From: a virus
Taxonomy: Duplodnaviria; Heunggongvirae; Uroviricota; Caudoviricetes
Length of the DNA stretch: 64,000 nucleotides
Virus record (IMG/VR): IMGVR_UViG_3300022910_000004
Direction: 5' to 3' (one strand)
Part shown: in pieces, positions 1-59,258 of the stretch
Numbering within the stretch: the first letter of the stretch is position 1
How the letters are laid out: every line of letters begins with the position of its first letter
Notes under the pieces: model-generated
What the model was told of the DNA's origin: nothing
Database searches by the model: none
The model's input: only the letters and a program-made list of their open reading frames with translations
Translations under genes and position numbers: made by a program

Positions 1-315
1 ATAGGAAATAAAATTATGATTCGGGGCAATCATGATGAAAAGTTTACAACTGAACAATGGCTAACGGTATTCAAGTCTGTTGAGAGTTTGGTTAAGTATA
101 AAGAGTATTGGCTGTCACATCCACCAATTCACCCTGCTGAATTACGTGGTAGACAAAATATTCATGGACATGTGCATCACGCTTCCATTAGAAACACTTA
201 TACTAATGTGTATGATGATAGGTATATAAATGTGTCTTGTGAAGCAATAAACGAAACACCAATTTCATTAGATGAAATTCGGTATGGTACTTACTGGAAA
301 AATAAGAGGTGTTAA
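1..315 (+). CDS. calcineurin-like metallophosphoesterase, C-terminal part; gene truncated by window start
   Basis: ORF is open to position 1; GNHD and GHVHH phosphoesterase motifs lie near the start of the translated part, so the N-terminal motifs must be upstream of the window. Confidence 0.5.
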   Translation: MGNKIMIRGNHDEKFTTEQWLTVFKSVESLVKYKEYWLSHPPIHPAELRGRQNIHGHVHHASIRNTYTNVYDDRYINVSCEAINETPISLDEIRYGTYWKNKRC

Positions 316-3424: not shown

Positions 3425-3979
3425 CTATCCCTTATACCAATCCTTAACTAACTCCTGCCTATACGGATAATACCCAAGAAAGAAATACCTAGGATTAATA
3501 GCAAACATCCTATCCCCATCCTTATCCAATTCAATACCCACTTCCCTAATTAATCCGCTATCCTTCAAAGACTGTAAAGCAGAATAAACAGTAGTACGCC
3601 CACACCCAGTCCCTTTCAATATATCCCCTATACTGGTATACACTAAATTATTATACCCCACCTCTCTCCCTAAGTAGAAGAAGATACAAAGCTCTGAAGG
3701 GTGTACCTGCCTATCAATAGCTAAATCTAATAAACTTCCCCCCACCCATAGGTTATACCTCCTTTTACCAATCTTATAAGCCACAGCCTGATTAAACTTA
3801 ACCCTATTAGTAATGCTCATAATATCCAAGGGCTCTGAATACTCAACATCCCTAGTGATGCTGGTATAAGCCACTCTATCAATTAACTCCCCAGTCTCCT
3901 CATCTAGGCAAGTCTCCATCTGGTTACCATCCTCATCTGTGTAAACCGATAGTACACTAAGTCTATTCATATCCCTCAT
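3425..3979 (-). CDS. winged-helix DNA-binding protein, divergently oriented (candidate replication initiator or regulator)
   Basis: 184-aa ORF on the opposite strand; wHTH-like TGCGRTTVYSALQSLKDSGLI; located directly beside an iteron-containing non-coding region. Confidence 0.55.
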   Translation of the reverse strand: MRDMNRLSVLSVYTDEDGNQMETCLDEETGELIDRVAYTSITRDVEYSEPLDIMSITNRVKFNQAVAYKIGKRRYNLWVGGSLLDLAIDRQVHPSELCIFFYLGREVGYNNLVYTSIGDILKGTGCGRTTVYSALQSLKDSGLIREVGIELDKDGDRMFAINPRYFFLGYYPYRQELVKDWYKG

Positions 3980-9146: not shown

Positions 9147-9313
9147 AACAATCTATGACAAAGCAACAAAAAGAAGCTCATAAAAAATTGCGCAAATCTC
9201 GGAGAAATCCACGAGGCAAGCAATTTTTAGCAGCGTAATTGAGAAGTAAATTTCTCAATCATTTTAAAATTTAACAATTTTGAGTGTTTTACTGCTCAAC
9301 TAGAGGATTTATT

Positions 9314-9634
9314 ATGAGTCATTTAATTATTGGGGAAGGTCAAAACAAAGCTTTATTTTTAGAATTTATTCAGTTTTGTGATAATAAACCTAAAGATGAG
9401 GTTATTAATCATGAAGGTTGGGATGATTGCGCAGTGGGGCAATTCTTTAGTACTAAAAGTGTAGCGTTTATAGGTTATTCTCAGATGCCTTTAGTTGATA
9501 CACTTTTGGGCAGTTTTAAAGGTTCTAAACAATCATTGCATTGGTTAGTTGGTAGTGGGATATGTCCTAGCACTTTTGGAGAATTCACAGAATTTCTAAA
9601 GTCTTATTTACCAAAAATTAACGAAACAGTTTAA
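9314..9634 (+). CDS. hypothetical protein
   Basis: start moved to the ATG after GAGGATTTATTATG (motif also used at 9741 and 10532). Confidence 0.5.
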   Translation: MSHLIIGEGQNKALFLEFIQFCDNKPKDEVINHEGWDDCAVGQFFSTKSVAFIGYSQMPLVDTLLGSFKGSKQSLHWLVGSGICPSTFGEFTEFLKSYLPKINETV

Positions 9635-9717: not shown

Positions 9718-9740
9718 ATTTAATACAACGAGGATTTATT

Positions 9741-9941
9741 ATGAGTAAAACAATTAAAGTGAGCCTTACTACAGTTTATGATAAAAATGGCAAACCTTCT
9801 TTAAAAGAGGGTAGAACTGTGATTCAAAAGGTAGAACATCATTACATATCCGGTAAGGTTTGTACAAATACTGGTGATATCTGGAGCCATGTACCTAATC
9901 CCAATCAAAAAGAATCAAATTATATTGCTATTCGAGATTAA
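9741..9941 (+). CDS. hypothetical protein
   Basis: 66-aa ORF after GAGGATTTATTATG. Confidence 0.5.
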   Translation: MSKTIKVSLTTVYDKNGKPSLKEGRTVIQKVEHHYISGKVCTNTGDIWSHVPNPNQKESNYIAIRD

Positions 9942-18741: not shown

Positions 18742-18999
18742 ATGAATAAGGCACTAATTTTAATGATGATTACTCTTTGTCTTGTAGGCTGTGGAGACAA
18801 GTCTTATACAGATGATAGTGAAAATTATAAATTACCACCAGAACTCTCTGCATGTAAAGTTTACTATCTAGGTCAAGGCGGACTGCAAACAGGAATAACA
18901 GTAGTGCATTGCCCAAGAGCAGATACTACAACGTCTTATACACAGTCTTGTGGAAAAGGTTGCACAAGACATATTAATACTACAGTGGCGAGCTATTAA
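18742..18999 (+). CDS. lipoprotein
   Basis: lipobox LVGC. Confidence 0.5.
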   Translation: MNKALILMMITLCLVGCGDKSYTDDSENYKLPPELSACKVYYLGQGGLQTGITVVHCPRADTTTSYTQSCGKGCTRHINTTVASY

Positions 19000-19000
19000 T

Positions 19001-19948
19001 ATGAATTTAATTATGAAATGCCTATTCGGTAGCCACCTTTATGGTTTGAACACACCCACTTCAGATAAAGACTATAAAGGAATCTATTTGCCAGACAAAG
19101 ACAATTTGTTGCTTGGAAATTATGCCAAGCATTATTCTGAATCTACAGGTAATGATAAGACTAAGAATACTAAAGATGATATTGACGTGGAGATATTTTC
19201 TCTTCCCTATTTTATAGAACTTGCCTGTAAAGGCGAGACTGTAGCTTTGGATATGCTTCATGCAAGAGAGGAAATGTTTGAGTCTAATATTGGTGAAATA
19301 TGGTGGGAGCTAAAAAATAGACGTAAGATGTTCTACACCAAAGATATGAAGTCCTATATTGGCTATGCTCGTAAGCAGGCTAATAAGTACGGTATCAAAG
19401 GTAGTCGTATGGGGTCTGTTGAAGGAGCTATGAAAGCTTTAGCTAAACTAACACCCAATTGGAAATTGAGTCAGGTTTGGGACAACTTGCCCACAGATGA
19501 GTTTTTAATAAAAGTTACTATGAATGATAAATCCTCTGCAAAACCTTTAAATTTTTATGAGGTATGTGGCCGAAAGTACCAAGACACTTTATTTGTTTAC
19601 CAAGCTTATGAGCTTATAGAGGGGATCTATAAAGAGTATGGGGATAGGGCTAGACAAGCTAAGAATGATGAGGGCGTGGATTGGAAAGCTGTTAGTCATG
19701 CACTAAGGGCTTCTTACCAAATGCTTGGTATTTTGAATGATGGAGATTTTGAATATCCTCTCCCCCAAACAGAATTTTTGTTGGCGGTAAAAACAGGGCA
19801 GCTTAACTTTGTAAATGAAGTTCAGCCAGAATTAGATTCTCTTATCGTTAAGATCGAAAAGATGTCAGCGGAAAGTAGTTTACCAAATAAAGTTGACAGG
19901 AATTATTGGGATCAATGGTTATTAAATGTTTATAGAGAATATCTTTAG
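19001..19948 (+). CDS. Pol-beta-fold nucleotidyltransferase (unknown substrate)
   Basis: GSHLYGLNTPTSDKDYKG (GS...[DE]x[DE]) plus downstream DIDVE; start placed at the ATG following the stop of the lipoprotein gene. Confidence 0.5.
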   Translation: MNLIMKCLFGSHLYGLNTPTSDKDYKGIYLPDKDNLLLGNYAKHYSESTGNDKTKNTKDDIDVEIFSLPYFIELACKGETVALDMLHAREEMFESNIGEIWWELKNRRKMFYTKDMKSYIGYARKQANKYGIKGSRMGSVEGAMKALAKLTPNWKLSQVWDNLPTDEFLIKVTMNDKSSAKPLNFYEVCGRKYQDTLFVYQAYELIEGIYKEYGDRARQAKNDEGVDWKAVSHALRASYQMLGILNDGDFEYPLPQTEFLLAVKTGQLNFVNEVQPELDSLIVKIEKMSAESSLPNKVDRNYWDQWLLNVYREYL

Positions 19949-19957
19949 GAGAAAACA

Positions 19958-20830
19958 ATGACAATACAATTATTCATAGATGGGGTAGAAGTTCCTGTAA
20001 AAAAGATTAAATTTTCTGATGGGGGATCTAATGTAAAATTAGAAGTTCCTGAAGGATTATCTCCAAGAAGATACATATGCATTACAGTTGACCCAATTAC
20101 ACCCGCAGATAACTATTTGTGGGAAATCGGTTTGGTTATGTATGCTTTGGAGGTATTGTTTCCAGATTACGAAACAAAGACTATTATAAATTTACCATAT
20201 CTACCTCACGGCAGAGCAGATAGAGTGTTTGAAAGAGGTAATCCATGCCCTCTAGAATGTTTCTTTGATGAATTCCTTTGTTGGGAATTAGATAATATTG
20301 AGATTCATTTAACTGATCCGCATAGTGACTTTTATAAAAATTATGCAGATAATCTCGCTTTTGAAGTGAAAGAGCAGTACCAATGTTTTAGAGATACAGT
20401 TTTTGGATTCCAGTCTGGAGATTATTTAATAAGTCCTGATAAGGGGGCCAAGACTAAGATTCATCAACTTCAACAGTACTTAGATTCTCGCTGGGTGGCT
20501 TCATTTGTTGTTGAGGCGGAAAAAGTGAGAGATCCATCCAACGGTAAAATATTAGAAACTACTTTACCTGAAGGTATTGATCTTACTAATAAGGTATGTT
20601 ATATTGTCGATGACATTTGTGATGGAGGTGGAACATTCATCCCTCTCGCTGAGAAGCTTAAAGAAGCTGGAGCAAAAGAAGTTCATTTGTACGTCACTCA
20701 TGGCATATTCGCTAAAGGTTTGGATTTGTTTAAAGGTAAAATAGATAAGCTTCATGTATACCAAATAGTAAGTAATTATGTTACAATGATTGATATTATG
20801 AACTTTAATCAGGGGAAAGAGGTAAAATGA
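19958..20830 (+). CDS. ribose-phosphate pyrophosphokinase homolog (Prs-like; candidate ADPR-PP synthetase of NARP1 type)
   Basis: PRPP-binding loop YIVDDICDGGGT; divergent N-terminus lacking canonical Prs motifs. Confidence 0.65.
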   Translation: MTIQLFIDGVEVPVKKIKFSDGGSNVKLEVPEGLSPRRYICITVDPITPADNYLWEIGLVMYALEVLFPDYETKTIINLPYLPHGRADRVFERGNPCPLECFFDEFLCWELDNIEIHLTDPHSDFYKNYADNLAFEVKEQYQCFRDTVFGFQSGDYLISPDKGAKTKIHQLQQYLDSRWVASFVVEAEKVRDPSNGKILETTLPEGIDLTNKVCYIVDDICDGGGTFIPLAEKLKEAGAKEVHLYVTHGIFAKGLDLFKGKIDKLHVYQIVSNYVTMIDIMNFNQGKEVK

Positions 20831-21105
20831 TTATGTTTAGCGATCACTGCCAAAAATGTGGACACAGCCTAGAGTGTATGGCCGGTGAATCTGCACACCC
20901 CTCTAATTGGTATTGTCCAAACAAGAATTGTGAGAAAGACGCTCAAGAACTTAAGATAAAATATCTTAAAAGTAAACGAGATCACCTAATTGATGAAGCA
21001 CAGAAGGCAGCACATGCCTACTTCGTTGAGTGTGATATTGGGAAGGAGCGTGAAAAGGCTGGCGAGATATATGAAAATATCCGTACTGCTGGAAGAGTTT
21101 ATTAA
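20827..21105 (+). CDS. zinc-ribbon protein
   Basis: CQKCGH...CPNKNC. Confidence 0.45.
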   Translation: MIMFSDHCQKCGHSLECMAGESAHPSNWYCPNKNCEKDAQELKIKYLKSKRDHLIDEAQKAAHAYFVECDIGKEREKAGEIYENIRTAGRVY

Positions 21106-21136
21106 CAATTAAGTAAATTTATATTAGGAGATAATT

Positions 21137-22858
21137 ATGCCATTAGCACAAACAGATAGTTATAAGCTTTCACACAAAGGGTTTATGAATAAAGGTACAA
21201 CTAAGCTTTATTCAAATATGACCGCCCGTTCTGGCAAACATTTCCCCGTCCTGCAAGATCGTTGGGATGGTAAAGTAGTAGTATTTGGATTTCAAAAGTT
21301 TGTCATTGAATTCCTGATTAATGAGTGGAACAGTAAGTTCTTTCAAATGCCTAAACATAAGGCTATTAAGAAATTCAAACGCCTTGTAGATGCTTACCTT
21401 GGTAAAGATGCTGTTGATATGGCACACTTCGAAGCTTTGCATGATATTGGTTATTTACCTTTGCACATCAAGTCTATTGATGAAGGTAATCGTGTAAATA
21501 TTAAAGTTCCTTTGTGGACTATTACAAATACTCATCCAGATTTTGCATGGTTAGTGAACTATCTCGAAACTGTGATGTCTTGTGAGTGCTGGAAACCAAT
21601 TACCACAGCTACGATTATCTCTGAATATCGTAAACTGATTAATGAATATGCACTAAAGACCACTGGCAGCTTAATGGGCACACAGTTCCAGATTCATGGT
21701 TTTGAATTCCGTGGAATGGCAAATCGTCAAGATGCAGCAAGCTGTGCAGCCGGAATGTGCTTATCTACAAATGGTACAGATACAATTCCAGCTTTAGAAT
21801 TAATTGAAGAGTACTACTTCACTGATATTGAGAAGTACTTTGTGGCAACTTCTGTGCCAGCAAGCGAACACTCTATTGCGTGTCTTGGAACTGCTGTACA
21901 AGGTGAATTAGAATCCTATCGTAAATGGATTACTGTAGACTATCCTACTGGCATTGTAAGCTTGGTAAGCGATACCTACGATTATTGGAAAGTACTAACA
22001 GAGTATCTCCCAATTCTTAAGCCCGATATTCTTGCTCGTCCAGTTAATGAGATTGGTTTGAGTAAAGTAGTTATTCGTCCTGATTCTGGTAACCCTGCGG
22101 ATATTATTTGTGGAGATGTTTTCACAGATTTAACTAAAGACTGTAAAGATTTTGACACTTTCAAACGTTGGGCGTTAGAAATCATTCGGGAAGAAGTGGG
22201 AGATGATACTCCTCATGGAGAGTGTGGTGAATGTAACCCAAACAAAATCTTCAAATGGCAAGATAAGTACTATGATGTACATGCAGAAATTGAATGGAAT
22301 CGTTATGATAAACAATACTATTATATGGAGGACGAACGCATCACTAGTGTGGAAGAAATTGAACTTACACCAGAACAAAAAGGCTCTGTAGAACTCCTCT
22401 GGGAGACCTTTGGAGGCACTGTAACAGAGCAGGGATACAAAGTATTAGACAGTCACATAGGATTGATCTATGGTGATTCTATTACACTTAAAGTGGCTTT
22501 AGATGTAATGGAACGATTAGCAGCCAAAGGATTTGCCTCAACAAACATAGTGTTTGGTGTAGGCAGTTATACAATGCAGTATCTAACTCGTGATAGCTTA
22601 GGTATGGCAGTTAAAGCCACCTATGGCGAAGTTGATGGTGTTGGTTATGAGTTGTTTAAAGATCCAATTACTGATAGCGGTATGAAGAAGTCAGCAAAAG
22701 GATTGTTACGTGTGGAAAAAGAGGGAGATGATTACGTTCTATATGATCAGCAAACTCTAGAGCAAGAGGCTACAGGGGAATTAACTTCTCTGTTTTTGAA
22801 TGGGAAATTGATGAAACAAACTACATTCGAAGAATGTCGTAATCGTCTTTGGAAATAA
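21137..22858 (+). CDS. nadV: nicotinamide phosphoribosyltransferase family protein (NadV/Nampt-like; candidate Namat)
   Basis: 573 aa; type-II PRTase RPDSGNPADI motif; adjacent to Prs-like gene. Confidence 0.75.
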   Translation: MPLAQTDSYKLSHKGFMNKGTTKLYSNMTARSGKHFPVLQDRWDGKVVVFGFQKFVIEFLINEWNSKFFQMPKHKAIKKFKRLVDAYLGKDAVDMAHFEALHDIGYLPLHIKSIDEGNRVNIKVPLWTITNTHPDFAWLVNYLETVMSCECWKPITTATIISEYRKLINEYALKTTGSLMGTQFQIHGFEFRGMANRQDAASCAAGMCLSTNGTDTIPALELIEEYYFTDIEKYFVATSVPASEHSIACLGTAVQGELESYRKWITVDYPTGIVSLVSDTYDYWKVLTEYLPILKPDILARPVNEIGLSKVVIRPDSGNPADIICGDVFTDLTKDCKDFDTFKRWALEIIREEVGDDTPHGECGECNPNKIFKWQDKYYDVHAEIEWNRYDKQYYYMEDERITSVEEIELTPEQKGSVELLWETFGGTVTEQGYKVLDSHIGLIYGDSITLKVALDVMERLAAKGFASTNIVFGVGSYTMQYLTRDSLGMAVKATYGEVDGVGYELFKDPITDSGMKKSAKGLLRVEKEGDDYVLYDQQTLEQEATGELTSLFLNGKLMKQTTFEECRNRLWK

Positions 22859-22879
22859 TTAAATATCGGGAGTAGTAAA

Positions 22880-23101
22880 ATGGGACTTAATGTTTTTGGT
22901 AAATTGCTAACTGTGGATGATGCTATCTCTTCTTTACAAAAGACAGTAGATAAGCTGAAAGATGTTATTGGCGTTCGTGATAATGCTATAACAGAAAACA
23001 CAGCTAAAGTGGCCGACCTTCAGAGGGAAGTTGCAGAACATCAATCTGAAAAGGAAAGAGCCCAAGCAATTTTAGAAAAATTAACTAATTTGTTAAGTTG
23101 A
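22880..23101 (+). CDS. coiled-coil protein
   Basis: 73-aa heptad-rich ORF. Confidence 0.4.
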   Translation: MGLNVFGKLLTVDDAISSLQKTVDKLKDVIGVRDNAITENTAKVADLQREVAEHQSEKERAQAILEKLTNLLS

Positions 23102-23111
23102 GGAGATAATT

Positions 23112-23327
23112 GTGGTGGACCCTGTTGAAATAAAAGCCTCTAGGGATAGGGTTGCCAGAAGACTAGAGCGACTTAACTCTTTAAAAGATAAGATAGAAAA
23201 TAGACACTCTGGAAGAGAAATTTGGTTTACCTACCATGCTGGTTGGGATCTTGGATATCTTAAAGGGCAAATCTCTATTTTAGAGGAAATGGAAGATTTG
23301 CTCAATGATCTTGTTAGAGATAGTTAA
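23112..23327 (+). CDS. hypothetical protein (GTG start)
   Basis: GAGGAG RBS then GTG. Confidence 0.4.
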   Translation: MVDPVEIKASRDRVARRLERLNSLKDKIENRHSGREIWFTYHAGWDLGYLKGQISILEEMEDLLNDLVRDS

Positions 23328-23343
23328 TAAAGAATTTAAGTTA

Positions 23344-23373
23344 TAGACAAAGCTTAAGTAAAGGTGTTATAAT
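23344..23373 (+). promoter_or_regulatory. extended -10 promoter candidate (TAGACA-18-TGtTATAAT)
   Basis: TGnTATAAT at 23365-23373. Confidence 0.4.
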
Positions 23374-23404
23374 AAATTTTATTTTAAACTAAGGAGAATA
23401 GATT

Positions 23405-24289
23405 ATGAATGAACAATCCGTATCAAAACTTGCTAAATGGGGAATTATTTCTATTATAGCAATTATTGTGCTCGCTGTGTTAAGTCCATTTAACACTGTC
23501 CCCACTGGTACTCGTGGTGTAGTAACTCAGTTTGGTGCTATTAAAGGTATTGAACAAGAGGGTTTAGTAATCCTACCTCCTTGGCAAAAACTCTCTGTAT
23601 TCAATACACGAGCAGAAGAAGCCACTATCGAGAAGGCTGTAGGGGCTACAAGTGATACACAACCAGTATTTGTTAGTCTTACTGTACGCTATAATGTCTT
23701 CCCAGACCGTGTAGCAGAAGTATATGAGAAATACTCTCGTGATGGAGACTTGTCTTCATATGTACAGACAGCAACTGCTGAAGTATTTAAGGCAGTAACA
23801 GCCAAATACACTGCACCAGACCTTATTAGTCAACGTGCAAAAGTATCAACTGATATTGTAGAAGCTTTGTCTAAGAAACTGTCTTTATATGGTGCAAACG
23901 TAATAAACGTTGATATGCGTAACTTTGAGTTTTCTGCCACTTATATGACAGCAATTAATCAAAAGGTTACTCAAGAGCAATTACGATTAGTAGCAGAGAA
24001 TCAACTGAAGACGGTGGAAGCAGAGCAAAAGCAGAAAGTTGCTATTGCTGAAGCAGAAGCTAATGCCGCTCGTGCAAAGGCTGATGGTGAATCTTACGCT
24101 AACTTAAAGATTGCATCAGCTCAAGCTGAAGCACTACGAATTCAGAATGCTGCATTAGCTCAAAATAAAGATGTGTTAGAGCTTCGTCGTATTGAAGTAG
24201 AAATGAAAAAAGCTGAAAATTGGAATGGTGCCCTACCACAAAATATTTATGCTGGTGCCCCAATTCCCTTTATGAACTTTCCTAAATAA
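23405..24289 (+). CDS. SPFH/band-7 (prohibitin/HflKC-like) membrane protein
   Basis: N-terminal TM then TGTRGVVTQFGAI...LPPW core; Ala/Glu-rich coiled coil at C-terminus. Confidence 0.65.
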   Translation: MNEQSVSKLAKWGIISIIAIIVLAVLSPFNTVPTGTRGVVTQFGAIKGIEQEGLVILPPWQKLSVFNTRAEEATIEKAVGATSDTQPVFVSLTVRYNVFPDRVAEVYEKYSRDGDLSSYVQTATAEVFKAVTAKYTAPDLISQRAKVSTDIVEALSKKLSLYGANVINVDMRNFEFSATYMTAINQKVTQEQLRLVAENQLKTVEAEQKQKVAIAEAEANAARAKADGESYANLKIASAQAEALRIQNAALAQNKDVLELRRIEVEMKKAENWNGALPQNIYAGAPIPFMNFPK

Positions 24290-24334
24290 GTAAGGATCGC
24301 TTAAGATAGAATAGGATTAATAATAGAGTTACTA

Positions 24335-24362
24335 GATGCTTCGTAAGAGGCATCATTTTTAA
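24335..24362 (+). terminator. putative terminator
   Basis: GATGCTTC...GAGGCATC imperfect hairpin then ATTTTTA. Confidence 0.35.
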
Positions 24363-24408
24363 ATGCTTAATGAGTTTTTAAGAATGATAAACAAATAGGA
24401 GTACAGAT

Positions 24409-25119
24409 ATGGCAAATAGTCTTGGCGATAGAATGAAGGGTTATGAACATGTTAATCGTAACTTCTTGATTAAAAGAATGCCTGTGGTTATCCGTTTGGA
24501 TGGAAAAGCTTTCCACACTTACACTAAAAACTGTGGAAAGCCTTATGACTCAGATTTGCATATTGTTCGTAAGGCGACTCTGGAACATCTTTGCAAAGAA
24601 ATACAAGGTGTTATTATAGGGTATTCTCAGTCAGATGAGATATCCCTTGTTCTTAAAGACTGGCAGACATTCAACACTTCTGCTTGGTTTAACAATAACA
24701 TCCAGAAAATTTGCAGTGTATCGGCCTCAATGTGTACGATGAGGTGGAATAGTGCAGTTAATTTCATGAACTATGATATTGGGCATATTGTTTTAGAGCC
24801 TTGTGCTATGTTTGACTCAAGAGTGTTCAATCTTCCCAAAGAGGAAGTAGTGAATTATTTAATCTGGAGGCAACAAGATTGGGAACGTAACTCTGTCCAA
24901 ATGTTGGCCCAAAGCTTATACTCTCACAAAGAGTTACAAGGTAAAAGCTGCTCCCAATTGATTACTAAAATCGAAGAGGAATTTAATATTATCTGGGGAA
25001 ATTTTTTGCCTTGGAAAAAGCAAGGTGAAATTTGGTTTGGTGGGAAAACACAAGAGAGTTTTCTTTTTAAGAATAATCGTGTCCTTATTGAGGAAGAACT
25101 TAATTTGGAGTTGAATTGA
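24409..25119 (+). CDS. tRNA-His guanylyltransferase Thg1-like protein (3'-5' nucleotide addition)
   Basis: RLDGKAFH and GYSQSDEISLVL match the Thg1 catalytic core. Confidence 0.7.
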   Translation: MANSLGDRMKGYEHVNRNFLIKRMPVVIRLDGKAFHTYTKNCGKPYDSDLHIVRKATLEHLCKEIQGVIIGYSQSDEISLVLKDWQTFNTSAWFNNNIQKICSVSASMCTMRWNSAVNFMNYDIGHIVLEPCAMFDSRVFNLPKEEVVNYLIWRQQDWERNSVQMLAQSLYSHKELQGKSCSQLITKIEEEFNIIWGNFLPWKKQGEIWFGGKTQESFLFKNNRVLIEEELNLELN

Positions 25120-42393: not shown

Positions 42394-43384
42394 AGAAAGT
42401 TTAAGTTATAGACCTTTTAAATACCCATTTGCAGTCGAGGCGGAAAAGAAGCAATTCATTGATACTTACTGGCATGAGGGGCAAGTAGATTTACAGGATG
42501 ATTTAAGGCAGTACTACTCCAAGGATGGATTAAAAACCCCTAACTGTACACATGAATACAACAAATATATTTTAGATACATCTTTGTTATTCTTTACTCA
42601 GTTAGATATGAATGTAGCTCAGGGATATGTAGACTTATTACCTTACACAAAGAATAATGAAATTAAAACTTTATTTATTCAACAGGCAGCAAAGGAAGTA
42701 CGTCATCAAAGGGCTTACGCATTAGCTGGGGAAACGTTTGGGTTTACGGATGCAGACTGGAATGCATTCAGACAGTATAAGGAAATGACTAGTAAGATTG
42801 ATGTGATGTCTTTTAGTAGTCTGCCGTTAAGCACTCCTCTTGGGTACGCCCTAAAGCTTACACAAGTGCTTTTAGGGGAGGGTATAGGATTGTTCGCTCA
42901 ATTCACTGCCCTCTTGAACAAGAAGCGTTATGGATTACTAATAGGCTTTAATGACATTAATCAATGGAGTTTATTGGATGAGTTTCTTCATGTTGAGAAT
43001 AACCTTGCTGTTCTTAAGCATGTTATTCCAGACTTGACTGAAGCAGAGAAGACCGACCTCATTCAAACGACTAAAGTTATGGTAGACGATTTTGTTGCGG
43101 CAGAACATGCCATCATTGATCTCTACTACGAGAAGGGTAGTTTGGAAGGAATTGATAAGGAGGACTTCAAGAACTACATTAAGTACTTAGGAAAGAATAT
43201 CCTATTTAAGGCAGGTTATATTGGAAGTCTTGAAGTTCCAGTAAACCCTTTAAAGTGGATGGATAGTATGCTAAGTGCTGAAAGGCATGGGGCATTCTTT
43301 GAGAAACGTGTTACAGACTATTCTCACAAGAAGCTTGAAGGTGAAATAGATTATAGTAAATACCAAATCTTACTTGACAGCTAG
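42380..43384 (+). CDS. nrdB: ribonucleoside-diphosphate reductase small subunit
   Basis: 334 aa; KEVRHQ iron-ligand motif; follows nrdA. Confidence 0.75.
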   Translation: MSIFEESLSYRPFKYPFAVEAEKKQFIDTYWHEGQVDLQDDLRQYYSKDGLKTPNCTHEYNKYILDTSLLFFTQLDMNVAQGYVDLLPYTKNNEIKTLFIQQAAKEVRHQRAYALAGETFGFTDADWNAFRQYKEMTSKIDVMSFSSLPLSTPLGYALKLTQVLLGEGIGLFAQFTALLNKKRYGLLIGFNDINQWSLLDEFLHVENNLAVLKHVIPDLTEAEKTDLIQTTKVMVDDFVAAEHAIIDLYYEKGSLEGIDKEDFKNYIKYLGKNILFKAGYIGSLEVPVNPLKWMDSMLSAERHGAFFEKRVTDYSHKKLEGEIDYSKYQILLDS

Positions 43385-43402
43385 TTAAGTATAGGCGATA
43401 CT

Positions 43403-43441
43403 AGCCCCATATGACTTAGGTTGTGTGGGGCTTTTCGTTTT
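43403..43441 (+). terminator. putative rho-independent terminator
   Basis: AGCCCC...GGGGCT stem then TTTCGTTTTT. Confidence 0.45.
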
Positions 43442-43454
43442 TGGAGGATAGTGA

Positions 43455-43718
43455 ATGGTTATCGAAACTTACAATCTTAAATCTAATGGATCATTTTCTA
43501 TATTTAATGATCCTTATGACAAAGAGCAACACCCTAATCAACGGGGTGGATTAGACAAGTATATTGATGTACTAGATCATAGAACTGGGGAAATTAATTC
43601 TGTAAAGCTCTACATTAATAGTAAAGGGCTTCATTTTAAAAAGAATGGTTCACATTACTTATCAGAGTTTATTTTAGATTCTATATACGTTCCTTATCAA
43701 ATTGAGGTGTTGGTATGA
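43455..43718 (+). CDS. hypothetical protein
   Basis: GGAGGA RBS. Confidence 0.45.
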   Translation: MVIETYNLKSNGSFSIFNDPYDKEQHPNQRGGLDKYIDVLDHRTGEINSVKLYINSKGLHFKKNGSHYLSEFILDSIYVPYQIEVLV

Positions 43719-44017
43719 GTTCAGTAAAAGAGGATAAAGTGAAGCCTAGACTCAAGGTTAGCCTAACAGTAACTTCTTATCTGACTAAGACTGGTTTTGA
43801 GCTAAAGAAGTCGTTATACTTCTACAAGAACCCCAATCCTGAATACCTAATTGATGCCTTCAAAGAATGGGCTAAAGAGCGTGGATTGTATGCTATCACT
43901 AATCTTCATCTGCTTGATGATGGAATATACGAATTGGTAATAAGAAATATATCTTATGATTGGGATACTGGCACTCCTGATGACTGGGAATTTGAATTAA
44001 TTGAGTGGAGGGACTAA
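43715..44017 (+). CDS. hypothetical protein
   Basis: 100-aa ORF. Confidence 0.45.
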   Translation: MSSVKEDKVKPRLKVSLTVTSYLTKTGFELKKSLYFYKNPNPEYLIDAFKEWAKERGLYAITNLHLLDDGIYELVIRNISYDWDTGTPDDWEFELIEWRD

Positions 44018-45207
44018 TGGATATTGAAAAAATACAAAAATTTATAACTTCAGCAGAATCATTGAAGCGTAAAGTCACTACTGAATCGGCTGCTACATTT
44101 ATTGAAGCATCGCTTTACGTAACGAAAGAATTTATTGCTGAAATTACAGCATTGCAAGACCGCCTGTGCGCTGCTGAAAGTCGAATAACCGAATGGTTTT
44201 GTGAATCGTGCAATACAGTTTATCCGGCACCAAAAGGGTTCAACCTATTATGCAAGTGTGGGGATGGCACATTAAAGCCATCCAGCATGATTGAGCGGGA
44301 ATTGGTTAGACGTTTAGAGAATAGCCACATTGAGTGTAAGTCAATCTCTGATGACCGCGACCGCTTGCAGTCAATTGTCGATGAAGCGCAGGGGCAAGAG
44401 CCATTTGACTTTGACAGGATTACCAATGCCATCCACGACCTTTGCCTCAGTACTGATGCAGGAGTAGTGCCATCATGGAAAGATATTAATTCAATTCTTT
44501 GTTCACAAAAACTCTACGCCCTTCCTCCAATACCAGCTAAGCAAGTGCCAGATGGATATGTGCACGTGGATGAGGTCATTCAGCTTTGCAGAGACTTTAG
44601 TAGTCGCACCGGCTCAATCTATATCGGTGATGTTGAGGCGGCCTTAACGGGCATGCTGCAATCGCACCCAGAGCCAAAGCAATCAGTCGAGATAAATGAC
44701 CAAGAAATGCGCGAAGCTTATGAGTTGGCGTGCATGAAAAAATATGAATCGAATTTGGCCAGATGCTTTCTTCGGCTATATACGCCAGATAAGCAATCAG
44801 TCGAGATAAGCGGCGGGGGTGATGAACTTATCGGGTATATTCACGAAATTGACCTTGAGCATTTAAAAGAGACAGGTAAAGGCAAAATATATCGCGATGA
44901 AATCCTTGATTCATTAGCGGTTTATTCTAGGCCATCCCCCAATAAGGCAGATGTGCCGGAAGAAATTAGAAAGGAAATATTGATTGATGCGATTCGCTCA
45001 ATAGAGAAAAGTCACTTTAGAACAGTTGATGATCATGGTGCGAGCGAGCATGCACAAATTGTGCTAGGCCACTTACGTGGTCTTGCTGGATTACCGATGG
45101 TTTTTAAAAGCGACTTACCTGCATGGGATGGTGAAAAATATGCCATGCCCGAAAATAGTAATTTGTTGGCTAATTGTAAGCCGCTCCCACCGCTAAAGGA
45201 TGAGTAA
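44017..45207 (+). CDS. GC-rich (about 48%) horizontally acquired gene; zinc-ribbon protein of unknown function
   Basis: CESCN...CKCGDG; codon usage rich in GCG/CGC/CCG unlike flanks; internal repeat KQSVEI appears twice; C-terminus PLKDE duplicated downstream. Confidence 0.55.
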   Translation: MDIEKIQKFITSAESLKRKVTTESAATFIEASLYVTKEFIAEITALQDRLCAAESRITEWFCESCNTVYPAPKGFNLLCKCGDGTLKPSSMIERELVRRLENSHIECKSISDDRDRLQSIVDEAQGQEPFDFDRITNAIHDLCLSTDAGVVPSWKDINSILCSQKLYALPPIPAKQVPDGYVHVDEVIQLCRDFSSRTGSIYIGDVEAALTGMLQSHPEPKQSVEINDQEMREAYELACMKKYESNLARCFLRLYTPDKQSVEISGGGDELIGYIHEIDLEHLKETGKGKIYRDEILDSLAVYSRPSPNKADVPEEIRKEILIDAIRSIEKSHFRTVDDHGASEHAQIVLGHLRGLAGLPMVFKSDLPAWDGEKYAMPENSNLLANCKPLPPLKDE

Positions 45208-45208
45208 T
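45193..45208. repeat. direct repeat copy 1 (CTAAAGGATGAGTAAT)
   Basis: perfect 16-bp match with 45366-45381; contains the stop codon of the GC-rich gene. Confidence 0.8.
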
Positions 45209-45209
45209 T

Positions 45210-45380
45210 ATGAGAAAGTTTTTAATCATGACATTAGTAAAAATGCGTTGGATCTATTTTCACATTCACCCAAGCTATTTTAAATTTACAGTCAATGGTG
45301 AGCCGCATTTTCAAAACTTAAAGAACAACACAATACATAGTAATTATGTTTGGGTGGATGAACCACTAAAGGATGAGTAA
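45210..45380 (+). CDS. 56-aa ORF ending in the same PLKDE-stop as the upstream GC-rich gene (possible remnant or displaced gene end)
   Basis: in-frame ATG at 45210; C-terminus VDEPLKDE; lies between the two 16-bp repeats. Confidence 0.3.
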   Translation: MRKFLIMTLVKMRWIYFHIHPSYFKFTVNGEPHFQNLKNNTIHSNYVWVDEPLKDE

Positions 45381-45381
45381 T
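45366..45381. repeat. direct repeat copy 2 (CTAAAGGATGAGTAAT)
   Basis: contains the stop of the 56-aa ORF and the ATG of the 45373 gene. Confidence 0.8.
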
Positions 45382-45729
45382 ATGGAATGTGGAAATGATC
45401 TTGCTAAACTCTACTACGAGGCCCATATTACTATCGAACCTGTATTTGATGATAGACGCTTAGCTGCTTCTGCTATTGCTATTTCGTATGGCTTTAAATT
45501 AGCAGATCTTCTTATGAAGAAACGTTCTGAAGATACAGAGGAACGTTCAGCTAAAGACACATTTATGACAGGTCATAGCAAAAGTAGGCTTGACATTGAA
45601 TCTAGAACAAGAGATACTATCCTTCACCTTCAAAGGGCTGGTTACAAAGTTTGGCGATACAAGATAGAAGATACTTTACTTGATAGCCGAATTAAAGATG
45701 TTTTTAACTTACTAGGAGATGAAAAATGA
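45373..45729 (+). CDS. hypothetical protein
   Basis: 118-aa ORF. Confidence 0.45.
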   Translation: MSNMECGNDLAKLYYEAHITIEPVFDDRRLAASAIAISYGFKLADLLMKKRSEDTEERSAKDTFMTGHSKSRLDIESRTRDTILHLQRAGYKVWRYKIEDTLLDSRIKDVFNLLGDEK

Positions 45730-46025
45730 AAAAGATATTTTTACTGTTGATTTGCTTTATCCCAATGTTTACCTTAGCTGATACTATCCCTGCTGGTTAT
45801 TGTCAGGTAGAAGTGTGTAATAGAATTGAACGCTTTAGTTTAGACCCCTTCTCTCACCTAAAGGATCGTATTGGAGAAAGTTGTGTAGTCACTCTTGTTA
45901 GTAAAGAAGATGCTGTTGCTGATAAGAAGTTAAGCTCTGAGTCTCGTTGGTATCAGGGATCTACTATCAACCCAACTAAAGAAAGTGTTACTCGGGTTAA
46001 AAGAGTTATTCTTTGTGGGGAATAG
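45726..46025 (+). CDS. secreted protein with signal peptide
   Basis: MKKIFLLLICFIPMFTLA. Confidence 0.45.
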   Translation: MKKIFLLLICFIPMFTLADTIPAGYCQVEVCNRIERFSLDPFSHLKDRIGESCVVTLVSKEDAVADKKLSSESRWYQGSTINPTKESVTRVKRVILCGE

Positions 46026-46026
46026 T

Positions 46027-46230
46027 GTGATTCTTATTACCTATTTAGAAGAGTGGGCTTACGACAGCAAAGGTAGAAAATCTCATAAACTAACTTCACC
46101 AAAAATTATGGTGAGTCATGGGGTAGATCCAACCACTTCAAATAATGTTATAGTTCCTCAAGAGAGTTTAGACTATTACATTCATATAGGTGCTAAACTT
46201 GGATTAGATGGAGAGTACCATTTATGCTAA
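46027..46230 (+). CDS. hypothetical protein (GTG start; alternative start 45985)
   Basis: ORF continues from 45985 and overlaps the upstream gene. Confidence 0.3.
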   Translation: MILITYLEEWAYDSKGRKSHKLTSPKIMVSHGVDPTTSNNVIVPQESLDYYIHIGAKLGLDGEYHLC

Positions 46231-46436
46231 ATATTACAAGAGATAAATTAGAAGAGTTCCTTGCTAAGCTTAGGCTTGAGTGCAGCAAAAGGGGAGAAGC
46301 TCATGTTAGTTGGGGAGTGATTGGGCCTACTTTAATCGTTGATATCATTATTGATGGATTAAGGGATAGCTATTGCATTTACAACTCAGCTAATGGTGGG
46401 GTGACATTTGATCGCATTTGGAACGGTGTTATCTAG
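46224..46436 (+). CDS. hypothetical protein
   Basis: 70-aa ORF. Confidence 0.4.
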   Translation: MLNITRDKLEEFLAKLRLECSKRGEAHVSWGVIGPTLIVDIIIDGLRDSYCIYNSANGGVTFDRIWNGVI

Positions 46437-46448
46437 GAGAATACTTGT

Positions 46449-46727
46449 ATGATGATGAAATATGTTTGTTTTATTAATGAAGATGCTAACATAGAAGAAA
46501 TATTCCTATTTCCTAAAGTAGTTCATCATGACTGCTTTTCAGAGGATATTGATTTTATGAGAAATCAGAGTTATGGTGATTGGAACAGAATTGCTAGACG
46601 ACCAGTGTCGGCAGGCTTTGTTAGGTTTGTAGGAGGTAAGGTTGTTTGTTTTGGCAGAAGTGAAACCTTAAAATTATCCTCAAGACCAATAGATACTGAA
46701 ATTCTGAATAAACAACTGGGAGGTTAG
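46449..46727 (+). CDS. hypothetical protein
   Basis: 92-aa ORF. Confidence 0.4.
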   Translation: MMMKYVCFINEDANIEEIFLFPKVVHHDCFSEDIDFMRNQSYGDWNRIARRPVSAGFVRFVGGKVVCFGRSETLKLSSRPIDTEILNKQLGG

Positions 46728-46728
46728 T

Positions 46729-46941
46729 ATGAGAGATAAAGAAGTTCACGTATTCACAGAGAAAGGTGGGATGATAGCGCAAGGCCTTCCAATTGCTGAG
46801 GCAAGAAAAATAGCTAATAAGTATGCTAGGGAGAATATTGGGCAATCAGCTCACATATTCGGCATCGTAGAATCTCATTTATGTCCTGAAGTTCCACCAA
46901 CTGTCACTAAAGGATATTGGGCTCAACCGCAGGAGGAATAA
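46729..46941 (+). CDS. hypothetical protein
   Basis: 70-aa ORF. Confidence 0.4.
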   Translation: MRDKEVHVFTEKGGMIAQGLPIAEARKIANKYARENIGQSAHIFGIVESHLCPEVPPTVTKGYWAQPQEE

Positions 46942-46945
46942 TCCT

Positions 46946-47509
46946 ATGTGGTATAAAGTAAATTTTATAGTAAAGTATTGTCTATTCTGGCTCATTATCT
47001 TCTTATCATTAGATATAGTAGATAAGAGAGGAGAAATTCAAGACTACTTTAATACTCTACCTAATAACTCAGAGGTTGAGGAGTTGCATTTTCAGAACAC
47101 CTTAGCACTTGCTCAAGAGGAATTGGAAGAGAAGAAGCAAATACATTGTATGGCTGAGGCCGTCCTATACGAGGCTTACAGCGAGTCTAGAAAAGGGAAG
47201 GCTATGGTAGCCCAAACGATTTTAAATCGCTCCAAAGCTTACAGGAAGAGCCCATGCTGGGTTGTTAATGAGAAGAGGAATGGATATTGGCAATTCTCTT
47301 ACCATTATGACTTTAAGAAGAGGGATAAGTATGGGAAAAAGGACTGGAGAATGGCTGAGAATATTGCCGAAGAAGTGTTAGACAAGAACCATGTAACATC
47401 TGTTATGTTCTATAAGAGATGTGACACAGAGAATTCTGGATTTGATGGTCTTATACTACATTCAGTAATTGGTAATCATTGTTTTTATAAAGAGGATAGA
47501 AAGGCATGA
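46946..47509 (+). CDS. membrane-anchored cell-wall hydrolase (SleB/Hydrolase_2-like)
   Basis: N-terminal TM (FIVKYCLFWLIIFLSL) then AVLYEAYSESRKGKAMVAQTILNR...WQFS core. Confidence 0.5.
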   Translation: MWYKVNFIVKYCLFWLIIFLSLDIVDKRGEIQDYFNTLPNNSEVEELHFQNTLALAQEELEEKKQIHCMAEAVLYEAYSESRKGKAMVAQTILNRSKAYRKSPCWVVNEKRNGYWQFSYHYDFKKRDKYGKKDWRMAENIAEEVLDKNHVTSVMFYKRCDTENSGFDGLILHSVIGNHCFYKEDRKA

Positions 47510-57743: not shown

Positions 57744-58604
57744 TTAATTTCCAATAGCGAGAAAGCTCACCGCTATTATACTTGGCCCACTTGCATCTCT
57801 GTGAAAGTTTGTAGTGAATCCGTTTTTCGATATGTTGTATGCAGACAAACTTACATCACCACGACCAATAGATTGGGCATAGTTCAAGTTAACCACAAAA
57901 CAATTTGTAGGGAAGCTTAAGCTAGTAAATACATCAGCGTCTTTGTTTGCGTTAATTTGCCCCCATTGCATTCTGAATCCTAACAACCATGAAGGAAACT
58001 GAATGTACCCATTTGAGGCAAGGTTGGCAGAAAACCCTAATTTAAATTTCTTAGGGGTTAAGTATTTATTATCATCAGTTGCAGTAATAGCATCTGAATC
58101 ATCAGCTTTAATTAATCCTGCCGCAGAAGCAGCAGCAGCTTGCGTAGTAGCTGTAAATACATTCTTACCCGCAGTACCACCACCAAGCAACGTTAATAAG
58201 TTATTAGCATTTGGAGAAGAGAGCAAACTTAGAAAATATGAGCTATACAATGAAGCAGCAACAGCACCAGATTTATCTAATGTCTTATGCCATGCAGATT
58301 CAGAAAGATCTGCTACAGGATCTGTTCCAGTATTATCTACTTTACAGATATAAAAATTTCCATCACTCCCTTGCACCCAGCTTTTATTAGCTATATATGG
58401 TGTAGATGCATCCCATAAATTCATACCATGCTGATTGTTGTGCGCAATTGCTTGGTCTTGTTTGTTATCAAGCCAGTTAAACCACTCTCTTGGTGGTTCT
58501 TCAATAATCCAGCCTTGTATAATCTTTGCATCAGATGGAGTTGTTTTAACTCCACCACTACTCCAGATTTTATTTATGTCTGAAGGTTTTGTAATTTCTG
58601 CCAT
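57744..58604 (-). CDS. tail fiber protein, paralog A
   Basis: N-terminal about 100 aa (ITKPSDINKIW...WVQGSDGN.Y.CKV) shared with the adjacent gene; divergent C-terminus. Confidence 0.55.
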   Translation of the reverse strand: MAEITKPSDINKIWSSGGVKTTPSDAKIIQGWIIEEPPREWFNWLDNKQDQAIAHNNQHGMNLWDASTPYIANKSWVQGSDGNFYICKVDNTGTDPVADLSESAWHKTLDKSGAVAASLYSSYFLSLLSSPNANNLLTLLGGGTAGKNVFTATTQAAAASAAGLIKADDSDAITATDDNKYLTPKKFKLGFSANLASNGYIQFPSWLLGFRMQWGQINANKDADVFTSLSFPTNCFVVNLNYAQSIGRGDVSLSAYNISKNGFTTNFHRDASGPSIIAVSFLAIGN

Positions 58605-58616
58605 TACTTTTTCCTA

Positions 58617-59258
58617 TTAAAGTGGGATAACACTATCAAAGAATAAATCGCCACTTGCGCCCGTATTGTATATTTTAACTGTGCCATCAGTACCTATAAG
58701 AGAGTAAGAAGGTCCAGCGCCACTGGCGATGTTGGTTAGAGATGCTCTTCGTGCAGCAGTTGGTCTATAAGCTGTTGGAAGAGTAAAGGTAGTAGTACCG
58801 TCTGTTCTTGTACCACCAGATATAGATCCATAAATATGTAATGAATTATTAAAAAATCTATATCTTAAACTTACGTTAGTCCAAGAGTTGGATAAGGTAG
58901 GAGTTTGTTCAGGACCAGCACCAGTACGATATATTGGAATACCCCAATAAGTAAAAGTAGTATCTGTTGTAGGGTTTTGGTTGGTGTTAGTTACTTTACA
59001 AGGATAGATATTTCCATCACTACCTTGAACCCAACTAGTACCAGCTTGATATTCTGTAACATCATCCCAAATAGGAACACCGTGTTGATTTATATGCGCA
59101 ATTGATTGATCGATTTTATTAATCATCCAATTGAATTGTTGCAGAGTAGGGATCTCTACAATATATCCTAAAGCTATTTTTGCATCGTCTGGAGAATGCT
59201 TGTCACCAGTAGCAGCCCATATTTTATTTATGTCTGAAGGTTTTGTAATATTAGTCAT
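58617..59258 (-). CDS. tail fiber protein, paralog B
   Basis: same conserved N-terminal domain; different C-terminal domain. Confidence 0.55.
   Translation of the reverse strand: MTNITKPSDINKIWAATGDKHSPDDAKIALGYIVEIPTLQQFNWMINKIDQSIAHINQHGVPIWDDVTEYQAGTSWVQGSDGNIYPCKVTNTNQNPTTDTTFTYWGIPIYRTGAGPEQTPTLSNSWTNVSLRYRFFNNSLHIYGSISGGTRTDGTTTFTLPTAYRPTAARRASLTNIASGAGPSYSLIGTDGTVKIYNTGASGDLFFDSVIPL

Follow-up and report, generated by a model that had tools for sequence, protein, structure and literature searches.

A mosaic multi-domain phage gene with linker sequences conserved at the nucleotide level and a repeated terminal junction

In T4-type phages, the PeSL cassettes are short expression signals repeated between small non-essential genes, and recombination between the copies inserts, deletes or replaces the open reading frames (ORFs) flanked by them, which explains differences between near-identical phages (PMC2839356, PMC4122927). 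In the gp38 adhesins of T2/T6-type phages, conserved glycine-rich motifs part hypervariable segments, and this design permits segment swapping (PMC3157838). The SAS of cluster K mycobacteriophages is a short conserved motif located directly 5' of the start codons of a subset of genes (PMC3203893). Relaxed homologous recombination by Rad52-like phage recombinases is a source of mosaicism (PMC3945230), and the polyvalent proteins of phages and conjugative elements string several independent small domains in one polypeptide (PMC5512222). Here we describe a locus in a stretch of 64,000 nucleotides of a Caudoviricetes virus (IMG/VR record IMGVR_UViG_3300022910_000004), which we call the window and which is contained in a 96.7-kb metagenomic phage contig (ENA ERZ27228472 k141_1664580). 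The locus consists of a gene encoding a 396-aa protein and a 16-bp direct repeat that brackets a 56-aa ORF (ORF56) 3' of it. An earlier reading of the letters of the window (the original prediction) had regarded the gene as a foreign GC-rich cassette or moron inserted between the repeats. Comparison with related contigs leads us to think it probable that this is instead a resident mosaic gene, the cassettes of which are reassorted by homologous recombination at islands conserved as DNA and at a terminal junction. The positions of the features are shown in Table 1.

The only full-length relative of the 396-aa protein among 5.8 billion proteins was P0002 (287 aa). This protein is encoded on four contigs (L002, L003, L004 and L030) from other soil or rhizosphere samples, and the gene order around it is unchanged. 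When the window was compared with L002, the flanks were identical at 97.7% over 43365-44177, which includes the first 161 nt of the gene, and at 98.8% over 45181-47320. The interior matched in no more than five islands, 31-53 nt long and 87-100% identical, and the cassettes lying between them were unrelated and of differing length. The left breakpoint was located in island 0 (LQDRLxAAE). The right breakpoint was located at 45208/45209, where the sibling reads CCACTAAAAGAGGAATAAC-TATG and the window reads CCGCTAAAGGATGAGTAAT-TATG, the two being identical for 341 nt from TATG on. At the position of junction copy 1 the sibling has CTAAAAGAGGAATAAC. Its first copy of the 16-mer matches at 12/16 only, meaning that the perfect repeat is a property of the window allele. 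The KQSVEI repeat noted earlier within the gene was also found, as an exact 19-nt direct repeat (AAGCAATCAGTCGAGATAA) starting at 44677 and 44791, and the extra cassette of the window allele, which is missing from the sibling, lies exactly between its two copies. Since the siblings possess a different allele at the same place, the site was already occupied in the ancestor, and the two alleles differ because the interior of the gene, between the two breakpoints, has been replaced.

Stretches free of single-nucleotide differences from the sibling adjoin the swapped segment on both sides (43882-44166, 285 nt, and 45209-45549, 341 nt), compared to a flank average of about one difference per 60-105 nt. 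These stretches may be due to chance or may be a trace of recent co-transfer.

The other members of the family are P0003 (L005), P0005 (L006), P0006 (L007), the gene of L008/L031, and P0109. The phages of these members have a GC content of 42-52% and nothing else in common with the window, and the same ordered linkers are found around different cassettes. Nucleotide matches between the window and these phages were confined to the islands, and the core of island 3 (CAATCAGTCGAGATAAGCGGCG) was identical in the window, L002, L005 and L008. The protein of cassette 3, GYVHVDEVIQLC.DFSSRTGSIYIGDV, was identical to that of L005 at 30/33 aa, yet most of its synonymous sites differed. When codons for the same amino acid were compared, 51/57 were identical in the islands versus 41/86 in cassette 3 (Fisher p = 1.5e-7). 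The synonymous divergence (dS) was 0 over 25 codons of the islands (window versus L008), and it was 2.2 in cassette 3 with a nonsynonymous divergence (dN) of 0.04 (window versus L005). That is, the islands are conserved at the nucleotide level. The position of a cassette also varies: the GYVHVDEV module stands behind island 2 in two members (the window gene and P0004) and behind island 4 in two others (P0003 and P0005). A profile search with the scaffold family returned 11 proteins and no new scaffold architecture.

The composition of the gene was then compared with that of its surroundings. The ORF begins at ATG 44017, which overlaps the TAA of the preceding gene, and encodes 396 aa and not 400 aa as first given. 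Its GC content was 43.4% (44.2% in the interior), with a GC content at third codon positions (GC3) of 0.39-0.41, against 31-37% and 0.23-0.37 in the neighbours. The mean of the window was 36.6% (standard deviation 2.3), and the gene forms its GC maximum (z = 3.3). The value of about 48% in the original prediction applies only to the peak 300-nt stretch (47.7%), but the interior is compositionally foreign, as had been proposed. In contrast, the N-terminal 161 nt had a GC content of 36.6% and a GC3 of 0.24, as in the phage backbone. The family genes have a GC content of 42-46% in genomes of 37-52%, the gene being GC-rich here and GC-poor in L005 and L008. The constancy of these values, whatever the GC content of the phage, points to a shared, horizontally exchanged pool.

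Table 1. Features of the locus in the window, and modules of the 396-aa protein.
Feature	Position	Strand	Basis
Mosaic gene, 396 aa, several domains; rare and uncharacterised family of phage proteins	44017..45207	+	ORF; single-module homologues
Resident N-terminal coiled-coil module, common to the sibling allele, ending in island 0	44017..44177	+	160/161 nt identical to L002
Island 0, LQDRLxAAE, putative site of left crossover	about 44150-44177	+	conserved at nucleotide level in L005 and L008
Cassette 1, zinc-ribbon module WFCESC...CKCG, missing from the sibling allele	44178..44352	+	L002 alignment; 22 proteins share only that module
Island 1, DRDRLQSIVDEAQGQEP	44353..44402	+	49/50 nt identical to L002
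Cassette 2, unrelated to the sibling cassette in the same slot	44403..44510	+	L002 alignment
Island 2, LYALPPIPAKQV	44511..44548	+	38/38 nt identical to L002
Cassette 3, GYVHVDEVIQLCRDFSSRTGSIYIGDV domain	44549..44655	+	module in 30 proteins; other slots in other members; one Lar fusion
Island 3a, EPKQSVEI, with copy 1 of the 19-nt repeat (44677-44695)	44656..44695	+	39/40 nt identical to L002
Cassette 4, extra segment between the 19-nt repeats, 38-codon period	44696..44790	+	missing from the sibling allele
Island 3b, KQSVEISGGGDE, with copy 2 of the 19-nt repeat (44791-44809)	44791..44843	+	46/53 nt to L002; core identical at nucleotide level in L002, L005 and L008
Cassette 5, IGYIHEIDLEHLKETGKGKIYRDE...	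44844..44930	+	common only to P0006 (L007), 70% nt identity
Island 4, SPNKADVPE	44931..44961	+	30/31 nt to L002, 29/29 to L008
Cassette 6, C-terminal domain HFRT..D.GA...AGLP...DLP.WD	44962..45180	+	elsewhere mostly a standalone protein of 65-160 aa
Junction copy 1, PLPPLKDE-TAA-TTATGA, putative right crossover of the allele swap	45181..45213	+	16-mer at 45193-45208; 30/30 to L005 (45184-45213), 32/32 to L008
ORF56, small independent gene between the junction copies	45210..45380	+	called as a gene in L004; homologue P0134; GC 31.6%
Junction copy 2 (16-mer at 45366-45381), then ATG 45382	45362..45384	+	identical in sibling L002
115-aa gene, probably served translationally by junction copy 2	45382..45729	+	gene call
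Zinc ribbon module	residues about 40-125		shared by 22 proteins
GYVHVDEV module	residues 165-221		shared by 30 proteins
Middle module	residues 232-321		shared by 3 proteins
C-terminal module	residues 313-390		shared by 73 proteins; mostly standalone, 65-160 aa

In the explanation that we favor, the family resembles beads on a string, an N-terminal coiled coil being followed by small independent domains, the cassettes, parted by linker islands (LQDRLxAAE, QGQEPV, LYAxPP..VP, KQSVEISGG, SPNKADVPE and PPLKDE-stop), and the alleles would be reassorted by homologous recombination at these islands. The window allele differs from that of the sibling in that everything between island 0 and the terminal junction is replaced, and it has one more cassette between the KQSVEI copies. 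The imported material would come from a gene pool of about 44% GC common to phages of 37-52% GC, and such a pool would explain the GC bump. The 16-bp repeat is two copies of the terminal junction of the family, which bracket ORF56 and would couple ORF56 and the 115-aa gene to upstream translation. The runs of perfect identity in the islands are about 23-38 nt long, which agrees with the shortest segments that pair efficiently, namely 23-27 bp with Red-beta and 31-34 bp with RecA (PMC3945230). From the alignments we infer recombination at the islands as the mechanism. The earlier proposal of short-homology recombination is retained to this extent: the interior was probably swapped at short conserved sequences, the PLKDE-stop junction among them, but an insertion scar is contradicted by the anatomy and by the sibling contigs.

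The repeat itself was exact, as had been reported. The 16-mer CTAAAGGATGAGTAAT occurs at 45193-45208 and again at 45366-45381, 173 nt downstream, and the similarity extends to 19/20 nt over 45189-45208 and 45362-45381. Both copies read PLKDE-TAA, at the ends of the 396-aa gene and of ORF56 (45210-45380), respectively. The gene had been described as bounded by the repeat; however, neither copy lies 5' of the 3' end of the gene, and it is ORF56 that stands between them. The second copy ends ORF56, as the original prediction stated, but it offers the next gene a stop codon and a Shine-Dalgarno sequence rather than its ATG, because this gene was called from ATG 45382, which AAGGA precedes by 8 nt. 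The 64-kb window contains five families of exact direct repeats of at least 16 nt, two of which are at this locus, and a pair of such repeats within 300 nt was obtained in only 1.5% of 200 first-order Markov simulations. The repeats are not a product of chance.

Every reading frame is closed within the 16-mer, by TAA (position 2), TGA (position 9) and TAA (position 13). The 16-mer also contains the Shine-Dalgarno sequence AAGGA, and an ATG follows 1-2 nt downstream. The other gene starts in the window have ordinary Shine-Dalgarno regions dissimilar to it, and the number of copies in the 64 kb remained two even when three mismatches were allowed. In L008, the junction 20-mer (CTAAAGGATGAGTRATTATG) is present three times in succession, at 3600, 3750 and 3965. 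The first copy stands after the family gene. The second comes behind an ORF of 47 aa with a zinc ribbon and is translated there in a different frame, as AKG-stop, and the third lies between an ORF of 70 aa and a gene with a Lar domain. The gene behind the junction of L005 encodes a Lar protein of 59 aa (Pfam E = 4.5e-7). When the junction 18-mer and 20-mer were scanned against the viral collection, the only match was L008, which carries the family gene. Judging from these arrangements, the junction behaves as a portable adaptor between small genes, and it is probably a functional translation-initiation region. A short and otherwise unrelated contig (L012, ERZ1034377 NODE-39446) has at 67-159 a perfect 43-nt tandem repeat of 2.2 copies, which includes the junction sequence CTAAAGGATGAGTGATTATG. 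We also considered translational bypassing between the 16-mers, as in T4 gene 60, and rejected it, because the same stop codon follows the landing copy and nothing would be gained.

ORF56 is a real, independent gene. Its homologue P0134 (55 aa) stands alone on contig L015, from an unrelated phage. The two proteins are colinear from Met1 with 75% identity, and L015 has no family gene upstream of P0134 and no other similarity to the window. Between the two genes dN was 0.21 and dS was saturated, which indicates purifying selection on ORF56. The homology stops at ...VWVD, after which the window continues with EPLKDE-stop, that is, with the junction, and L015 with SPESA-stop. The suggestion that the 56-aa ORF is the displaced original 3' end of the neighboring gene does not agree with a standalone homologue of full length under such selection. 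As for the 115-aa gene at 45382-45729, its homologues were 47-64% identical and were found in viral contigs of 36-64% GC with no shared synteny; it is another widely travelling small phage gene. It gave a marginal match to AbiEi in PADLOC (E = 0.008).

The locus shares some characteristics with each of the systems described above. It resembles the PeSL cassettes in having short, repeated and conserved expression signals between small genes. PeSL, however, consists of an early promoter and a stem-loop terminator, whereas the element here is a translational junction of about 20 nt overlapping the end of a coding sequence. A consensus scan of 43300-46200 found no promoter and terminator pair at 45181-45213 or 45362-45384, and the only pair was at 43374-43442. 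As regards the replacement of flanked ORFs between close relatives, junction copy 1 is the right breakpoint of the swap, and neither sibling lacks ORF56 between the two copies. The likeness to gp38 is that a single gene alternates conserved motifs (here the five islands) with non-homologous segments, and it concerns the design only, with no homology. The motifs of gp38 form the structural core of a tail-fibre adhesin, whereas the segments here are whole small domains that also occur standalone, and the gene lies in an early accessory region. The position of the junction relative to the ATG matches that of SAS, but the sequence and hosts differ, the copies are only two here and three in L008, and the element here also carries the stop codon of the upstream gene and marks recombination breakpoints.

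Linker or boundary sequences belong to the modular theory of phage evolution, reportedly put forward by Susskind and Botstein in 1978 and by Botstein in 1980. With that theory and with the action of Rad52-like recombinases, the locus shares an exchange among diverged phages via short identical stretches. The difference from the latter is that the exchange here is known from its end states and that no recombinase gene was identified in a Pfam scan of 20 large ORFs of the window. Polyvalent proteins are similar as multi-domain, recombining strings: the domains here recur singly or in other combinations, and Lar is found in the neighborhood and in one fusion. The protein here is, however, much smaller (396 aa), and no recognised conflict domain was detected in the family scans.

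A serious, though unlikely, alternative is that the short sequences have no role in recombination. The mosaic would then be produced by illegitimate recombination and selection for in-frame joints, the islands would be kept for protein reasons (as linkers, docking motifs or sites of polyprotein processing), and the two 16-mers would be alike because both encode a Shine-Dalgarno sequence, a stop and a start. The islands are indeed Pro/Gly-rich, linker-like protein motifs as well. The occurrence of the modules as standalone small proteins is compatible with a processed polyprotein, all gene starts in the phage have a Shine-Dalgarno sequence of the GGAG/AGGA type 6-10 nt upstream, and the sibling is functional with its degenerate first copy. 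In contrast, synonymous positions are kept in the islands and saturated in the shared cassette, which is hard to explain through protein selection alone. The junction is also kept in the other frame in L008, no other gene junction in the window is like the 16-mer, and both breakpoints of the allele swap coincide with islands. Thus, the identity at synonymous sites and the frame-independent conservation of the junction are not explained by protein reasons, although the linker-like peptides fit them.

Several points weigh against homologous recombination at the islands, which we nevertheless prefer. The islands were partly recognised by their nucleotide similarity, which biases the synonymous-site comparison, and a single cassette served as the control in it. 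ORF56 and junction copy 2 do not differ between the two siblings, and this lineage provides no instance in which a cassette flanked by junctions was gained or lost. The exact 20-mer is rare, and it has six genome or metagenome matches that are without the family gene and resemble ordinary ribosome-binding sites. There are only two alleles in the lineage of the window and about ten members of the scaffold family in all, from the end states of which recombination is read. The Pfam scan found no single-strand-annealing recombinase among the 20 large ORFs, many ORFs being unannotated.

That the GC-rich gene is an inserted moron, that its arrival left the 16-bp repeat as a scar and that the 56-aa ORF was once the 3' end of the original gene is in our opinion very improbable. 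The exact repeat is real and non-random and the gene coincides with the GC maximum, but both repeat copies lie 3' of the gene body, and the siblings possess at the same site another allele of the family, which shares with the window allele its first 161 nt, backbone-like in GC content. The standalone homologue of ORF56, of full length from Met1 and under purifying selection, also argues against it. An empty site was sought via the flanking genes and none was found: homologues of the 115-aa gene were present in 8 viral contigs and those of the 100-aa gene in a single one, with no shared synteny, and when the flanking proteins were searched for by exact identity, the two known alleles were all that came back. 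The original prediction had held that relatives carrying the gene with the same GC content and without the repeat would speak for an ancestral gene. The siblings agree with this by half, because their family gene has a GC content of 41.8% and their first repeat copy is degenerate.

It is hardly credible that assemblers created the mosaic by joining different phages at short shared sequences. All of the data are metagenomic contigs, and L030 ends at 1783, just past island 1, as is typical of a break at a polymorphic site. But the window allele was found on three contigs from three sources (JGI, Logan and ENA), the sibling allele was found on four contigs from JGI (two), ENA and Logan and was identical each time, and the ENA assemblies finished with a k-mer (k141) much longer than any island. 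Targeted hypermutation of the 3' part of the gene by a diversity-generating retroelement or a similar system, with the downstream repeat as a template remnant, can practically be dismissed, for although one repeat copy at the end of a variable gene and another beyond it look superficially like VR/TR, such a target needs a reverse transcriptase and a template repeat of about 100 nt differing mainly at adenines, whereas the repeat here does not exceed 16-20 nt, whole cassettes of unrelated sequence and unequal length, not point substitutions, distinguish the alleles, and no reverse transcriptase was present among the 20 large ORFs scanned (not every ORF was covered). The readings as such a retroelement, as a defence island or as a homing endonuclease were ruled out by the anatomy of the locus.

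If reassortment at the islands is true, the locus offers a base-pair-resolved example of the linker-sequence idea, both inside one gene, as coding linkers, and between genes, as an adaptor of stop codon, ribosome-binding site and start codon. Compared to the PeSL cassettes and gp38, the intergenic element here is translational and not transcriptional, and the intragenic units are whole domains. The finding is modest, as short-homology mosaicism is well known and the family is rare. A further reading goes beyond it, namely that the linkers and the junction make up a selected cassette-shuffling architecture, loosely integron-like but driven by general recombination; we hold this to be quite doubtful. 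The standalone domains (zinc ribbon, GYVHVDEV, HFRT/AGLP, Lar and others) would there, by the same doubtful reading, be combined in frame via the coding linkers or as coupled mini-genes via the junction. Were this so, phages of very different GC content could quickly re-sort counter-defence modules.

We next consider the modules and the possible function of the protein. A HMMER scan of 1.84 billion representatives gave 132 matches, and all of them except P0002 cover a single module (Table 1). The predicted zinc-ribbon motif (CxxC...CxC) was confirmed, none of its Cys positions varying among the 22 homologues. Neither the 396-aa protein nor its C-terminal domain had a match by tblastn in 50,697 phage records. 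No family was assigned to the 396-aa protein by Pfam, PHROGs, PADLOC or NCBIfam, its only Pfam match at E <= 0.1 being a sub-threshold ATP-cone. The modules and homologues were likewise unmatched in Pfam, PADLOC, NCBIfam and annotated PHROGs, with the exception of the Lar fusion P0126. In PADLOC at E <= 0.01, the 396-aa protein, ORF56, the flanking genes and the family members gave no match except the marginal one of the 115-aa gene. Lar (PF14354 / TIGR03655) was matched by neither the 396-aa protein nor ORF56, and it was found only in neighbors (L005 3357-3536; L008 3982-4455) and fused with the module of cassette 3 (module C) in P0126. As a mosaic early-region coiled-coil protein the 396-aa protein presumably resembles the lambdoid Ead/Ea22 proteins, but the Ead/Ea22-like family PF13935 had no Pfam match in the 396-aa protein or in P0002-P0006. 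The AlphaFold model of the full-length protein shows an N-terminal helical hairpin (pLDDT, the confidence score, about 84), poorly ordered linkers and a confident C-terminal domain. A sequence-profile search of the PDB with the C-terminal domain gave no match, and this domain (aa 311-390), which was modelled confidently with a pLDDT of 92.6, had no structural neighbor.

The family genes are located in early accessory regions and adjoin genes for Lar, DNA methyltransferase and NinG. The role in defence or anti-defence that had been suggested for the gene found no match in PADLOC, Pfam, PHROGs or NCBIfam, and only weak links to it are given by the neighboring Lar and DNA methyltransferase genes. 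Because of the architecture and the neighborhood, our guess is that the protein may be a multi-domain accessory or counter-defence factor of the polyvalent kind. Small uncharacterised domains that circulate among phages of differing GC content, beside anti-restriction genes, are reasonable candidates for a counter-defence screen.

The phage itself has no close relative among the 50,697 deposited phage records when searched with the locus by megablast, and the only part resembling known phages is the ribonucleotide reductase (about 70% nt identity to Rheinheimera phages). Genes for DNA ligase, NAMPT, a PRPP-synthetase-like protein, a Thg1-like protein, RlaP, primase-helicase, PolA and nrdA/nrdB lie 5' of the locus. 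The locus is directly 3' of nrdB, at the start of a series of small unannotated genes, in the order of an 87-aa gene, a 100/102-aa gene, the family gene, ORF56 and the 115-aa gene. Just 3' of nrdB, at 43365-43442, there is a promoter-like TTGACA-17-GATACT followed by a 13-bp stem-loop and a T-run. The similarity to the sibling contigs begins exactly at 43365, and in place of nrdB the sibling has, 5' of that position, the end of a gene of the ribonucleotide reductase large-subunit type (PF02867). This PeSL-like promoter/terminator element coincides with a second boundary of the mosaic.

Other repeats were found elsewhere in the window. An exact 17-nt repeat, GAGGATTTATTATGAGT, at 9303-9319 and 9730-9746 forms the Shine-Dalgarno sequence and the ATG-AGT start of two adjoining small genes, and it is another duplicated translation-initiation junction in the same phage. 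An exact 29-nt repeat at 58567-58595 and 59221-59249 encodes the common N-terminus ITKPSDINKIW of two adjacent minus-strand genes (57744-58604 and 58617-59258), the products of which are probably paralogous tail-fibre-like proteins with a common anchor and differing distal parts. Finally, the cluster at 18950-25119 contains genes for RlaP (of the RNA-repair polymerase-beta family), a PRPP-synthetase-like protein, NAMPT, an SPFH/Band 7 protein and a Thg1-like tRNA-His guanylyltransferase, which suggests functions in NAD+ salvage and RNA repair and possibly in counter-defence.

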